Below the pieces are notes generated by a model. It did not search any database and was not told where the DNA came from. It was given only the letters and a program-made list of their open reading frames with translations. A DNA stretch of 7,563 bases, taken from the IMG/VR virus record IMGVR_UViG_2711768001_000001; one strand, 5' to 3'. The position numbers and the translations under genes are program-made. Below are positions 1 to 7,563 of this stretch, one piece after another; positions within the stretch are counted from its first letter, which is position 1; each line of letters begins with the position of its first letter. The DNA comes from a virus. Its lineage: Duplodnaviria; Heunggongvirae; Uroviricota; Caudoviricetes.

Positions 1-35
1 GAACAGGAGGGACAGCTGATAGAAACAGAAGCCAC
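1..35 (-). CDS. insA: IS1 InsA, N-terminal fragment (about 11 codons, GTG start), truncated by window edge
   Basis: Minus-strand GTG at 35..33 followed by GCT TCT GTT TCT ATC AGC TGT CCC TCC TGT translates (M)ASVSISCPSC, matching the InsA N-terminus as I recall it. Confidence 0.7.
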   Translation of the reverse strand, partial: MASVSISCPSC

Positions 36-90
36 TGGAGCACCTCAAAAACACCATCATACACTAAATCAGTAAGTTGGCAGCATCACC
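1..90 (-). mobile_element. IS1 insertion sequence, left end (terminal inverted repeat plus insA leader and start); element continues beyond the window start
   Basis: Reverse complement of 1-90 reads GGTGATGCTGCCAACTTACTGATTTAGTGTATGATGGTGTTTTTGAGGTGCTCCAGTGGCTTCTGTTTCTATCAGCTGTCCCTCCTGTTC, which I recognise from memory as the canonical IS1 end followed by the insA start. Not verified by a search. Confidence 0.85.
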
Positions 91-105
91 TCATTCGTCT
101 GTTCC

Positions 106-612
106 TTAAATCTTCCAGGAAATTTCTGCATTGCCGTCAGCATCACCGGCACCTGTGAATTCAGCGTTGGTCAGCACCACGTTTTTGCCACTGACTGACG
201 TGGACATGAATCCACCCAGCGGCACTTTGATGGATTCATCAGTGGAGACGACAACGTATACCGGATCGCCTTTTTTGATAGTGCTGGCATCAAAATCAGA
301 ACCGAGATTAACGGTCACGTAGCCACGCTTCATGGCGTCGCCCGGGAAGTTCTTGCCTGTTCCCACCTGGCGAACCATGTCCGGCTGCGACGTGGTCGGA
401 TAAGGGCGCACGTAGATCCCCTTCACCTTGTCTGCGGTATCACCATCTGCCAGCGGCACGAAAAAACCGTCATCATCGTATTTACCAGCCAGGCCATAGG
501 CAGCGAAGGCGTTATCGGATTTAAGGACCACCGGTTCGACGGTTAAGTCCTGCGGGCGAGAGACAGCCCCGGCAATGCCAACAGGCATCCGGTACAGAAA
601 TACATTATTCAT
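106..612 (-). CDS. Phage head-associated protein, 168 aa (possibly decoration or minor capsid protein; function not resolved)
   Basis: Complete ORF with ATG at 612..610 three nt after the upstream gene's TAA (TAA AAA ATG), SD-like AAAGGG upstream, TAA stop at 108..106. Sits in the head module between the scaffold-like gene and the IS1-disrupted next gene. Family assignment is a guess. Confidence 0.7.
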   Translation of the reverse strand: MNNVFLYRMPVGIAGAVSRPQDLTVEPVVLKSDNAFAAYGLAGKYDDDGFFVPLADGDTADKVKGIYVRPYPTTSQPDMVRQVGTGKNFPGDAMKRGYVTVNLGSDFDASTIKKGDPVYVVVSTDESIKVPLGGFMSTSVSGKNVVLTNAEFTGAGDADGNAEISWKI

Positions 613-615
613 TTT

Positions 616-1836
616 TTACCCTTTACGGTTTGCCCAGAATTCAGCGTTTTGTTTGTTCAGGGAAGCGATACTGGTCATGCCCATGTTTAGGCGCTGTGCA
701 TCGCCGGTGGTGGCGCGGGTGTTTCGCCCTTTGGCAACCTCAGACACGGCATTAAACGCCATGTCGACCGATTGTTTCGGTAATTTGCGGATATCCGCAT
801 CACCGACTATCTGGCGAACCAGCGTTTTGTCAGCAGAAGCCAGAACCTCGCGTTTGAACGCGGTCGGTTTCATCTTACGGCTCAGATCGATACCCGGAAC
901 GATAACTTCGGCACGCCAGGCTGAGTCACCAGTAATCGTGGTTTCCTCTTCATCGTCCTCGCCGTCACCGGTCGGATTATCGTCAGGCTTATTATCGTTA
1001 TCGCCCGTGGCATTTCTTTCCAGCTTAGCCAGCAGGGCTTTCAGTAATGTTTTGAGGTCATCATCACTGTCGCCGGTTGGATCTCCGCCCATCTCTGGTG
1101 CTTTGTCCGGTAGTGGTTGCTGCGGGGACAGGTTGATGTTGAGATTAACGCCCTGCGGCAAATCCCCCTCATCTCCTGTAACCGATGCGGGAGCCGACTC
1201 CACCAGTTCGTTCATGGTGTCGGCATCTCCTGTCTTGATGGCCGCACGCATGCGGTTCCACCAGTTTTTCTTTTGATTTGCCATTGTGTCTCTGTCTCCA
1301 ATTGCACAACGATTTCCGGCTCTGCCTTTAGGGACAAGAGCCACATGGTTTCCGGTAATATCGACCTGCTCGGCTTTACCTGGCTCGGTCTGCTCGTACT
1401 CCGCGTCATAGCCGCACGACACTTCGCGCAGGCCATCTTCGATAAGCTGAATGGCGCTTTCGTCTTTGACGATAAGGTCAGCCAGCATCAAATCAGACTG
1501 CTCACCCGTCCCGCGCCGGACATTCTGGAGGTGCCCGACAGCAAGCTCTTTCCAGTTCTCGGGATTTACCAGCCGCACATTCCCGTTTTCATCTTCAGGA
1601 TGCAGGATCGTGATGCTCATCCCTTCGAATGAGGCAAGCGTGGCCGGATGGAATACCTGCTCAGGAGAACGCGTGACGACTATTTCACCGAACTTATCGG
1701 GTTTCAGTTTTGGCAGGTCATCAGCACCATAGAGCTGCTTACCTGTTCGTCCTATCGGCACGTCTTTGCACAGCAACGAGCCGTCAGCCAGGCGGTATCG
1801 GGTTTCCCCGAGCCTGGTCTCAAAAAAGTATTTCAT
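616..1836 (-). CDS. Phage head scaffolding / prohead-protease-like protein, 406 aa (possibly DUF2213 family), with acidic low-complexity linker
   Basis: Complete ORF starting 3 nt after the head morphogenesis stop. Globular N-terminal region, then an acidic Asp/Glu-rich linker (residues about 250-305) with recurring TGD tripeptides, then a basic C-terminal region. Architecture and position are typical of scaffold/protease genes; exact family from memory only. Confidence 0.75.
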   Translation of the reverse strand: MKYFFETRLGETRYRLADGSLLCKDVPIGRTGKQLYGADDLPKLKPDKFGEIVVTRSPEQVFHPATLASFEGMSITILHPEDENGNVRLVNPENWKELAVGHLQNVRRGTGEQSDLMLADLIVKDESAIQLIEDGLREVSCGYDAEYEQTEPGKAEQVDITGNHVALVPKGRAGNRCAIGDRDTMANQKKNWWNRMRAAIKTGDADTMNELVESAPASVTGDEGDLPQGVNLNINLSPQQPLPDKAPEMGGDPTGDSDDDLKTLLKALLAKLERNATGDNDNKPDDNPTGDGEDDEEETTITGDSAWRAEVIVPGIDLSRKMKPTAFKREVLASADKTLVRQIVGDADIRKLPKQSVDMAFNAVSEVAKGRNTRATTGDAQRLNMGMTSIASLNKQNAEFWANRKG

Positions 1837-1839
1837 GGG

Positions 1840-6255: not shown

Positions 6256-6765
6256 ATGGAGTGGATAAATGCTTTGATGAACTATTTTGTACTTCATCCA
6301 TATCGCCTATGGGGGCTTCTTTTTATAATAGCGTTCACAAAATCCACTTTACTCATTTCGGCGATATTGCCACCAGCATCAATTATGATGGCCACTGTAA
6401 TTACAGTCAGCAAGACGACTCTTTCACCATGGGAAGCTGGAATCACGGTCATGAGTGGCGCATGGTGCGGTACTATCGTTAATTACCATCTTGGTATAAT
6501 AATTGGGCATATCCCTCAACTTGCATGTATAATATCAAGCCGTTCCAATACAATAGAACGGGTTCGCCTTCAGTTGCAAAATAACTCTGTGTCAATACTT
6601 TTCACTTCGCGCTTTATCGCCGTGCTGCGTTATATTGCTCCTTTGGTGGCAGGAATGTTGCAACTTCATCCAGTGAAAGTGTATACAGTGAGTCTGATTT
6701 CAGCTGCTAGCTGGTCAGCACTTTATGTTGGTAGTTTTAGCTTCGTGTTGCCTTTTTTTAGCTAA
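6256..6765 (+). CDS. DedA-family (SNARE-associated/TVP38-like) inner membrane protein, about 169 aa; moron on the opposite strand to the phage late genes
   Basis: ATG at 6256 preceded by GAAGGAAAG; TAA at 6763-6765. Hydrophobic throughout. SRFIAVLRYIAPLVAGML resembles the DedA signature G-R-x5-R-x3-P-x2-AG (compare E. coli YqjA GRFIAFVRTLLPTIAGL as recalled). N-terminal LLISAILPPAS parallels the LLPxxFLPGDS motif but lacks the acidic residues. Visibly AT-rich compared with flanking phage genes. Confidence 0.6.
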   Translation: MEWINALMNYFVLHPYRLWGLLFIIAFTKSTLLISAILPPASIMMATVITVSKTTLSPWEAGITVMSGAWCGTIVNYHLGIIIGHIPQLACIISSRSNTIERVRLQLQNNSVSILFTSRFIAVLRYIAPLVAGMLQLHPVKVYTVSLISAASWSALYVGSFSFVLPFFS

Positions 6766-6853
6766 ACTGCCCATAAAAAGCTCTTGCGAATCCAGCTTCC
6801 CCCATTCCTCTGACAACAGAATCTGATTTGAAGGATAATGAGTAAAATTACCG

Positions 6854-7106
6854 CTACCCCCCAAGGCATTGGATCCTGATGTACTCCTGAAGCATTCTCA
6901 ATGCTGTCTGGTCGCTGATGATTCCGTCCCGGATACCGAGAACGTTTCGTCCAGCAACTGGAGAGAGTTCGACGGTGGCATCATTGCCCATGCCGGAGGC
7001 GCTGGAGGTTTCGGCTGAGGATGGCACAGGGCATTTTCCTTTGACGAGCACCCGACCACCATTATCAAGCTTGCGCCGAAGAGCATCATTTTCAGCTTTC
7101 GCATCA
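6854..7106 (-). CDS. Rz: Rz i-spanin, C-terminal portion (N-terminus lies in the N gap)
   Basis: Frame reads DAKAENDALRRKLDNGGRVLVKGKCPVPSS...QEYIRIQCLGG then TAG at 6856..6854. The DAKAENDALR segment and overall pattern match the lambda Rz C-terminal region as recalled. The 65-aa track ORF 6854..7051 is its GTG-initiated tail. Confidence 0.8.
6898..7104 (-). CDS. Rz1: Rz1 o-spanin outer-membrane lipoprotein, 68 aa, embedded in Rz in the +1 frame
   Basis: ATG at 7104..7102 gives MRKLKMMLFGASLIMVVGCSSKENALCHPQPKPPAPPAWAMMPPS..., with a lipobox (VVGC) and proline-rich mature region closely resembling lambda Rz1 as recalled. Wholly inside the Rz frame, the hallmark embedded arrangement. Confidence 0.85.
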   Translation of the reverse strand: MRKLKMMLFGASLIMVVGCSSKENALCHPQPKPPAPPAWAMMPPSNSLQLLDETFSVSGTESSATRQH

Positions 7107-7356
7107 NNNNNNNNNNNNNNNNNNNNNNNNNNNNNNNNNNNNNNNNNNNNNNNNNNNNNNNNNNNNNNNNNNNNNNNNNNNNNNNNNNNNNNNNNNNNNN
7201 NNNNNNNNNNNNNNNNNNNNNNNNNNNNNNNNNNNNNNNNNNNNNNNNNNNNNNNNNNNNNNNNNNNNNNNNNNNNNNNNNNNNNNNNNNNNNNNNNNNN
7301 NNNNNNNNNNNNNNNNNNNNNNNNNNNNNNNNNNNNNNNNNNNNNNNNNNNNNNNN
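7107..7356. other. Assembly gap / masked sequence (250 N)
   Basis: Uninterrupted run of N from 7107 to 7356. Confidence 0.99.
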
Positions 7357-7455
7357 ACCATCGTTACCACCTGGGCCAGTGATTAACACAGATGCTATAG
7401 CAACAGCCCCGCCACCAATAGCAACTGCAACAGCCTTGCGTAATGATGGCGACAT
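7357..7455 (-). CDS. SAR endolysin (phage 21 R / RrrD-type lysozyme), N-terminal 33 codons; remainder lost in the N gap
   Basis: ATG at 7455..7453 (SD GAGGTG 5 nt upstream) gives [33 protein letters not shown], near-identical in pattern to the Gly/Ala-rich signal-arrest-release domain of phage 21 lysozyme as I recall it ([33 protein letters not shown]). Confidence 0.8.
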
Positions 7456-7477
7456 TATTCACCTCTCGCAGCCTTAC
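7455..7477 (-). pseudogene. Pinholin (phage 21 S21 / EssD-like) 3' remnant, last 6 codons plus stop; rest of gene replaced by IS2
   Basis: Minus strand 7475..7455 reads AAG GCT GCG AGA GGT GAA TAA (KAARGE-stop), with the TAA overlapping the endolysin ATG (TAATG). This matches the recalled C-terminus of S21 (...RKAARGE). The IS2 end begins at 7478. Confidence 0.55.
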
Positions 7478-7563
7478 TAGACTGGCCCCCTGAATCTCCA
7501 GACAACCAGTATCACTTAAATAAGTGATAGTCTTAATACTAGTTTTTAGACTAGTCATTGGAG
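7478..7563 (+). mobile_element. IS2 insertion sequence, left end (IRL and regulatory region upstream of orfA); element continues beyond the window end
   Basis: 7478-7563 reads TAGACTGGCCCCCTGAATCTCCAGACAACCAGTATCACTTAAATAAGTGATAGTCTTAATACTAGTTTTTAGACTAGTCATTGGAG, which I recognise as the IS2 left terminus preceding the orfA start. One base may differ from the copy I remember. Not verified by search. Confidence 0.8.

Follow-up and report, generated by a model that had tools for sequence, protein, structure and literature searches.

The cryptic prophages DLP12, Rac and Qin of Escherichia coli K-12 are lambdoid remnants that retain a lysis cassette and scattered late genes, are truncated by insertion sequence (IS) elements or deletions, and form no particles. 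Lambdoid phages also carry morons such as bor and lom, which are single opposite-strand genes of deviating GC content that lie between late-gene blocks and are found in only some of several near-identical phages. In Shigella, the expansion of IS1, IS2, IS4, IS600 and IS911, IS-disrupted pseudogenes and IS-mediated deletions have been documented as hallmarks of genome evolution (PMC7373316). The stretch of DNA analysed here (the window) is the whole of the 7,563-nucleotide virus record IMGVR_UViG_2711768001_000001 (Caudoviricetes), and its non-N bases are 100% identical to at least 10 complete chromosomes of Shigella sonnei, including those of strains 53G and 75/02. It very probably represents the surviving centre, from the lysis cassette to the head-assembly genes, of a prophage remnant that was inactivated stepwise and is fixed and non-viable in S. 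sonnei. A preliminary description, made from the letters of the window, had found its mosaic of damaged and preserved genes typical of IS-rich Shigella/E. coli lineages, in agreement with this identity, and had called it probably non-inducible after three independent hits, with its packaging genes intact.

The lesions of the window are shared by S. sonnei 53G (HE616528; lineage II) and 75/02 (CP019689; lineage IIIc), both named in the literature, and thus predate the split between lineages II and IIIc. Both genomes have the same IS1 and IS2 junctions, the same amber codons in the portal gene and the same pgl and ybhD neighbours, with no sequence difference from the window. The 360-aa C-terminal portal fragment left by the amber codons serves as a marker of this lineage: one arrangement was common to all ten complete-genome places returned by an exact-protein look-up, and it is indexed in 2576 blocks of a public assembly collection, mostly on contigs of 5–10 kb, as expected of an IS-bounded, repeat-limited assembly. 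The locus is already known from closed, published genomes and from thousands of assemblies. Among the species-representative contigs (genome_contigs), an exact scan for the junction of IS1 with the cement gene gave 0 hits. The window itself has the shape of a short-read scaffold, both ends being the outermost bases of multicopy IS repeats. It holds only the outermost 90 bases of IS1 and the outermost 86 bases of IS2, and by itself it can show neither the DNA past either element nor whether IS1 is an insertion. A near-intact prophage of E. coli FDAARGOS_944 provides the reference for the region in between: window 91–7104 aligns to it (L001 9001–16014) with 9 mismatches and no gaps, and window 7357–7477 matches it at 100%. 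All the phage genes are on the minus strand except the DedA gene, and the gene labels were confirmed throughout by PHROGs and Pfam.

The left end of the window (1–90, minus strand) is the terminal end (left inverted repeat, IRL) of an IS1 element and is 100% identical to the IS1 copy in the complete S. sonnei genomes. It begins directly after the 'ATGA' of the DUF2184 major capsid gene, of which the ATG and one base (91–94, minus strand; aligned to L001 9001–9004, the annotated start of the coding sequence) are left, the remaining gene being deleted. IS1 elements are 768 bp long, with ~23-bp terminal inverted repeats, the genes insA and insB, and a target duplication of 8–10 bp, usually 9 bp. 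The full copy in S. sonnei 53G is of this length (768 bp), is 99.7% identical to annotated IS1A and yields products called as Pfam InsA and DDE_Tnp_IS1; its transposase genes lie on the minus strand, in the same direction as the phage late genes. The bases that flank it, GACGAATGA and AACAGGGGG, do not match, and the element is thus without the 9-bp target duplication of a simple insertion. The right flank comes from a point 16 bp upstream of the ATG of a truncated DNA-invertase gene, which in FDAARGOS_944 lies at the far right prophage end, adjoining pgl; this flank maps 19 kb away in the intact prophage, and the far side of IS1 aligns to FDAARGOS_944 (L013) from 11062 on, through the invertase remnant, pgl and ybhD. 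Because the flanks do not match and the right one lies 19 kb off, IS1 is the joint of a ~19 kb deletion and did not simply insert where the head gene starts. The joint may have arisen by adjacent deletion or, alternatively, through recombination of two IS1 copies. Relative to FDAARGOS_944, 19,075 bp are missing in S. sonnei, comprising the genes for the major capsid protein, head–tail connectors, sheath, tube, a tape-measure-like transglycosylase, baseplate and tail fibres, together with the type III secretion system effector gene ipaHb, and the chromosomal pgl follows within 0.4 kb past IS1.

The effector gene ipaHb is located at the right prophage end in FDAARGOS_944 (L013 8761–10587) and is absent in S. 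sonnei between 13466 and 14235 of locus L006. Chromosomal ipaH genes sit among prophages and pseudogenes (PMC9046306), and the removal of an ipaH gene that the same prophage carries in other Shigella and enteroinvasive E. coli (EIEC) lineages accounts for a small part of their known mosaic distribution. A second IS1 (L006 16840–17599), 2.6 kb to the right of the first, replaces the chromosomal ybhH–ybhI and joins ybhD to ybhJ.

The portal gene (2474–3940, minus strand; DUF1073/Phage_portal_3) is a pseudogene with two in-frame TAG codons and the missense change A308V. Codon 59 has changed from TGG (W59) to TAG at window 3764–3766 and codon 126 from CAG (Q126) to TAG at 3563–3565. Each stop is a single transition, derived, and in frame with the rest of the gene, as TGG and CAG occupy these codons in FDAARGOS_944, FDAARGOS_943, VL40, the S. 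flexneri copies and the intact locus L037. The gene still matches the portal profile PF06381 (E = 1.3e-81), and the two stops divide its frame into segments of 58, 54 and 360 aa; the full-length reference product of 488 aa is not encoded. Sequencing errors and suppressed sense codons were both rejected as explanations of the stops, which are identical in independent closed genomes and stand against the ancestral TGG and CAG in all relatives. The two nonsense codons reported for the portal in the preliminary description are thus real and derived.

At the right end, the window closes with the first 86 bases of the left end (IRL) of IS2 (7478–7563, plus strand), a simple insertion with a target duplication of GTAAG. 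IS2 is characterized by a length of 1331 bp, terminal inverted repeats, orfA and orfB with a frameshift, and a 5-bp target duplication. The full copy in S. sonnei (L006 4386–5716) is 1331 bp long, is 99.3% identical to annotated IS2 (IS3 family), has GTAAG on both sides and yields products called as HTH_Tnp_1 and rve; its genes are on the plus strand and run against the direction of the phage late genes. It was inserted after nt 198 of the 216-nt class II holin gene, 23 nt before the gene end, and has severed these last 23 nt (7455–7477, minus strand), in which 7473–7477 (CTTAC) is one copy of the target duplication, from the rest. The ends of IS2 in the holin and of IS1 at the start of a head gene had both been recognized in the preliminary description at their correct positions. 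That IS2 lies in the holin holds as to place and overstates the damage to the product, since 66 of the 71 residues remain, both hydrophobic membrane segments among them, and only the last five (AARGE) are exchanged for 28 IS2-encoded residues. IS2 probably does most of its damage by separating the late promoter region from the downstream genes with 1.3 kb of foreign DNA that is probably polar.

The steps of the inactivation can be read from the sequence. The ancestor was very probably a lambdoid-early, SEN34-like myovirus prophage, fuller copies of which lie between ybhA and pgl with an ipaH effector gene at the right end. IS2 transposed into codon 66–67 of the 71-codon class II holin gene, leaving the 5-bp duplication, and two G:C to A:T transitions gave the amber codons 59 and 126 of the portal. 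The IS1-bounded deletion of ~19 kb took the major capsid gene (all but ATGA), the head–tail, tail and fibre genes and ipaH, and fused the cement-protein gene to the DNA-invertase remnant, 16 bp upstream of its ATG, beside pgl; more IS elements and rearrangements struck between the early genes and the holin. TerS, TerL, MuF, DUF2213, the cement gene, the endolysin and Rz/Rz1 may be open only for want of time for random mutation. At this locus the portal has two stops and no capsid, connector, tail or fibre gene is left, so that no virions would be made, and the remnant is predicted to be unable to form particles or plaques, whatever its regulatory state. The earlier judgement of a probably non-inducible prophage was accordingly right in direction and too cautious; in the complete genomes everything past the cement gene is missing. 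The three hits are genuine lesions but fall short of the full number: IS1 is the joint of a large deletion, and further IS elements lie upstream.

Polarising the differences with three close relatives gave twelve S. sonnei-specific substitutions over the 7,750 bp that separate IS2 from IS1. Three are synonymous (TerL I94, TerS G153 and DedA S95), seven are missense and two are nonsense, giving a ratio of non-synonymous to synonymous changes (N:S) of 9:3. Under neutral mutation models, 66–73% of coding changes are expected to be missense and 3.3–4.2% nonsense, and the probability of at least 9 non-synonymous changes among 12 is 0.5–0.7; 9 of 12 thus equals the neutral expectation, and the substitution pattern fits neutral decay. 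With so few substitutions since the copies diverged, open reading frames are the default expectation and no evidence of selection. The preliminary description had asked whether selection preserves the intact genes, above all the moron, and had proposed non-synonymous and synonymous rates in these genes as the check; the branch-specific ratio is compatible with neutrality. Among ~17 S. sonnei genomes, the polymorphisms are DedA R97H (in three genomes), TerL P9L, the nonsense change DUF2213 E138* and, in the cement gene, a single synonymous change.

Several observations weigh against a non-viable remnant in neutral decay. The region of S. sonnei 75/02 that encloses the locus was labelled 'Intact' by PHAST under the name 75/02pp10, SEN34-like (PMC5447701), which would suit a functional, inducible prophage whose ambers are suppressed or tolerated and whose IS elements are harmless. 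The many open reading frames, among them the endolysin, spanins and terminase, and the holin with 66 of 71 residues left could be cited in the same sense. Such a prophage is extremely unlikely, because no major capsid, connector, sheath, tube, baseplate or fibre gene is present at a locus where pgl lies within 0.4 kb of IS1, and the portal is broken twice. Rfam (at gathering thresholds) and ARAGORN scans of the window found no RNA family and no tRNA, and hence no suppressor tRNA encoded in it. Moreover, 75/02pp10 spans 3,461,614–3,492,646 (locus L011 being CP019689.1 3470417–3491499), and the PHAST region runs over the chromosomal pgl, ybhD, ybhJ and ybhC; the label rests on a gene-content score, with no test of function, and is an over-call. 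No more credit can be given to an assembly artefact, in which the IS ends would be contig-end repeats and the stops sequencing errors of a single draft. The window does resemble a short-read scaffold, with two multicopy IS ends and a run of 250 Ns in place of 613 real bases; however, independent closed genomes (53G and 75/02 among them) and thousands of assemblies carry exactly the same junctions, TAG codons and flanks.

The other observations on that side concern the distribution of the substitutions. On the one hand, two of the twelve are nonsense and both fall in the portal, which offers ~20% of the nonsense opportunity (probability of at least two nonsense changes ~0.06–0.09). On the other hand, all three synonymous changes lie in TerL, TerS and DedA (window 3940–6765) and all nine non-synonymous ones elsewhere (post hoc Fisher p = 0.0045); under the gene partition of the preliminary description, the synonymous/non-synonymous split gives p = 0.018. 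This split could hint at residual constraint, as would be expected of a domesticated remnant in which the DedA moron, perhaps with the terminase genes, is under purifying selection for host benefit while the rest decays. One and the same DedA protein is shared by S. sonnei, FDAARGOS_943, FDAARGOS_944, VL40 and many S. flexneri genomes; the S. flexneri gene is an intact island between IS elements in Rz and, in some strains, in TerS; and a 78% identical homologue at the same junction of an unrelated Citrobacter prophage points to a recurrent phage cargo gene. The exact protein is also indexed in 5113 blocks of the public assembly collection, although an exact-sequence look-up can find intact copies only. 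However, the counts are tiny and the gene grouping is post hoc, and the split is weakened by the within-species changes DedA R97H, TerL P9L and DUF2213 E138*. TerL has been destroyed independently by IS2 in FDAARGOS_943 and S. flexneri, DedA and TerS are both lost entirely in one related genome (L035), and the overall variability of 0.3% predicts one change in the 513 bp of DedA. No promoter or terminator of the DedA gene emerged from a simple scan. Selective retention of the DedA moron in Shigella, possibly together with the terminase genes, while the prophage decays is therefore improbable, and the analysis yielded no convincing sign of selection maintaining the packaging genes or the moron, the question that the preliminary description had raised. 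If such retention were true, a phage-borne DedA membrane protein would add to Shigella fitness, for example through envelope homeostasis or resistance to other phages. The split of the substitutions and the survival of an intact DedA between IS elements in several copies that decay independently are the sole hints of it. Neutral decay of a fixed, non-viable remnant remains the reading that we adopt.

The DedA gene (6253–6765, plus strand) encodes a short membrane protein of 170 aa with a VTT domain and lies between the lysis cassette and the terminase genes. Its product matches PF09335 over residues 42–162 with 52.4 bits against a cut-off of 33.9, placing it in the DedA family, and homologues of 167–180 aa were found in Citrobacter, Enterobacter and Arsenophonus. 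The GC content of the gene is ~0.40–0.44, compared with 0.50–0.55 in its flanks, and the gene is absent, with other genes in its place, from prophages that are 96–97% identical to this one from TerS through the cement gene. The DedA gene is thus a true moron, that is, an extra gene of deviating composition with a patchy occurrence among close phages. The 78% identical homologue occurs at the same lysis/terminase junction, also on the opposite strand, in an unrelated lambda-type Citrobacter prophage; the Citrobacter-like contigs L038–L041 (5001–5510) carry it between lysis genes and a lambda-type terminase. A DedA with 49% identity, in L042–L044 (5001–5504), is encoded by an ordinary gene of the Enterobacter cloacae complex chromosome, which has mgtE on one side and a short-chain dehydrogenase gene on the other. 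A moron would typically be expressed from the repressed prophage by a promoter and terminator of its own; a simple sigma-70 and terminator scan of window 5950–7106 gave no convincing promoter or terminator upstream or downstream of the gene, with counts not above those of shuffled sequence. The searches that were run returned no tested function for this short DedA. As a typical opposite-strand moron, it may or may not be expressed.

The remaining part of the window encodes lysis, packaging and head genes. The lysis cassette is lambdoid, with Phage_holin_2_1, Phage_lysozyme, Phage_lysis and Rz1 in order (Pfam). Downstream of the severed holin follow the first 33 codons of a signal-arrest-release (SAR)-type endolysin, an RrrD-like lysozyme (7357–7455, minus strand), the 3′ half of the Rz i-spanin (6854–7106, minus strand) and, embedded in Rz, the intact Rz1 o-spanin lipoprotein of 68 aa (6898–7104, minus strand; PF06085, PHROG 3198). 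The rest of the endolysin and the 5′ half of Rz are hidden under the N-run (7107–7356), which the preliminary description did not mention and which stands for 613 real bases covering the 5′ half of Rz and the 3′ two-thirds of the endolysin gene. These 613 bp are present in each complete S. sonnei genome, identical on both sides, and both genes are open there. The N-run as a true deletion of 363 bp in endolysin and Rz was ruled out on these grounds. In the complete genomes, three S. sonnei-specific missense changes affect the endolysin (165 aa; P41L, D127Y, R136C) and two affect Rz (156 aa; A60D, and C18R in the membrane anchor).

The head and packaging genes called intact are those whose lengths equal the copies in the FDAARGOS_944 reference, and all lie on the minus strand. 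TerS (5294–6058; 254 aa; PHROG 370, E = 7.5e-95) and a PBSX/Terminase_3-type TerL (3940–5343; 467 aa; PF04466, with a weaker match to PF17288; PHROGs 3717 and 2) form a predicted terminase with both genes intact, each having a single S. sonnei-specific change, which is synonymous. The Mu F-like head morphogenesis protein (MuF; 1840–2583; 247 aa; PF04233, PHROG 324) is given here with the coding sequence as annotated in L001; its first 110 nt (2474–2583) coincide with the 3′ end of the portal gene, read in another frame, and with the later start chosen by some gene callers the product has 152 aa. It is followed by a DUF2213 protein, a head maturation protease or scaffold-like protein (616–1836; 406 aa; PF09979; PHROGs 1961, 12864 and 530) with the S. 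sonnei-specific change S403N, and by a Gp24-like capsid cement or minor capsid protein (106–612; 168 aa; PF23982 and PF22758; PHROG 563). The reference lengths and the PHROGs and Pfam labels bear out what had been said earlier of TerS, TerL, the head morphogenesis and scaffold-like proteins, Rz1 and DedA as intact open reading frames.

Upstream of the holin, outside the window, DUF1133/Phage_antitermQ precedes the lysis cassette in 53G, and a 1247-bp IS911-like element (L006 2391–3637) replaces the Ile–Arg–Thr–Gly tRNA cluster between Q and the holin. Upstream of the holin, genomes of lineage III type carry an IS110-family element together with other IS elements, and no Q gene lies within 10 kb. 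The upstream structural variation lies at ~950–3950 in L003–L005, L007, L009, L011 and L012. In one strain (L019), the replication/QueH early block is in inverted order.

Comparison with related strains as to IS1, IS2 and the state of the portal, which the preliminary description had proposed, uncovered relatives with intact portals and without the S. sonnei lesions, some of which carry different lesions of their own. The ybhA–pgl prophages of FDAARGOS_944 and VL40 (Shigella/EIEC-like) and the S. flexneri remnants are 99.8–99.9% identical in DNA to the S. sonnei remnant and share its gene order, the DedA gene and the truncated invertase. Unlike S. sonnei, FDAARGOS_944 and VL40 have kept capsid and tail genes, have intact portals and lack IS2 in the holin, and FDAARGOS_944 keeps ipaHb. 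FDAARGOS_944 has a frameshifted head–tail gene and partial fibre genes; FDAARGOS_943 has IS2 in TerL and MuF W209*; and in S. flexneri a different TerL site is occupied by IS2, Rz contains an IS, the cement gene is truncated and the tail genes are gone, the portal being intact; TerS is truncated by an IS in some S. flexneri genomes. The IS2 sites in TerL correspond to window 4676–4680 and 4890–4895, in S. flexneri-type genomes (L018–L035) and FDAARGOS_943 (L002). The lesions that this prophage bears thus differ between S. sonnei, S. flexneri and FDAARGOS_943, a parallel decay as in Shigella generally. Between S. sonnei and FDAARGOS_944, the prophage DNA (L006 5717–13466) differs by ~0.2%, whereas the adjoining pgl–ybhD and ybhJ–ybhC (L006 14803–21083) differ by 1.5–2.0%, so that the prophage was shared more recently than the backbone; divergence climbs inside pgl, with only 1 mismatch in the first 568 bp past IS1.

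For the annotation of such loci, a prophage-prediction label such as the 'Intact' given by PHAST in 75/02 can mislead when IS-mediated deletions have removed the structural genes. In short-read assemblies the remnant stands alone on a contig of ~7.5 kb with IS1 at one end and IS2 at the other, which invites reading a deletion joint as a simple insertion. Beyond such bookkeeping the locus matters little: it is a textbook example of how IS elements erode Shigella prophages, an ordinary instance of genome decay that had already been sequenced.

Among viable phages, the Escherichia phages vB_EcoM-689R2, -611R5 and -606R2 share with the remnant a portal-to-cement module that is 94.5% identical and of the same gene order, and the corresponding module of Salmonella phage SEN34 is ~83% identical, again in the same order. 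Unlike the remnant, these phages lack IS elements and a DedA gene, their portals are intact and their capsid and tail modules complete; their terminase and lysis cassettes are different ones. The S. sonnei lesions are absent from vB_EcoM-689R2 and SEN34, as they are from L037, FDAARGOS_944 and VL40. The DedA gene shares the moron traits of bor and lom and differs from them in encoding a DedA/VTT-domain membrane protein of ~170 aa. Like DLP12, Rac and Qin, the S. sonnei remnant keeps a lysis cassette, with an endolysin annotated as RrrD-like, and scattered late genes. It differs from these K-12 prophages in its SEN34/E217-like rather than lambda-like head module, in its integration site and in its much younger decay, with 12 lineage-specific substitutions in 7.75 kb.

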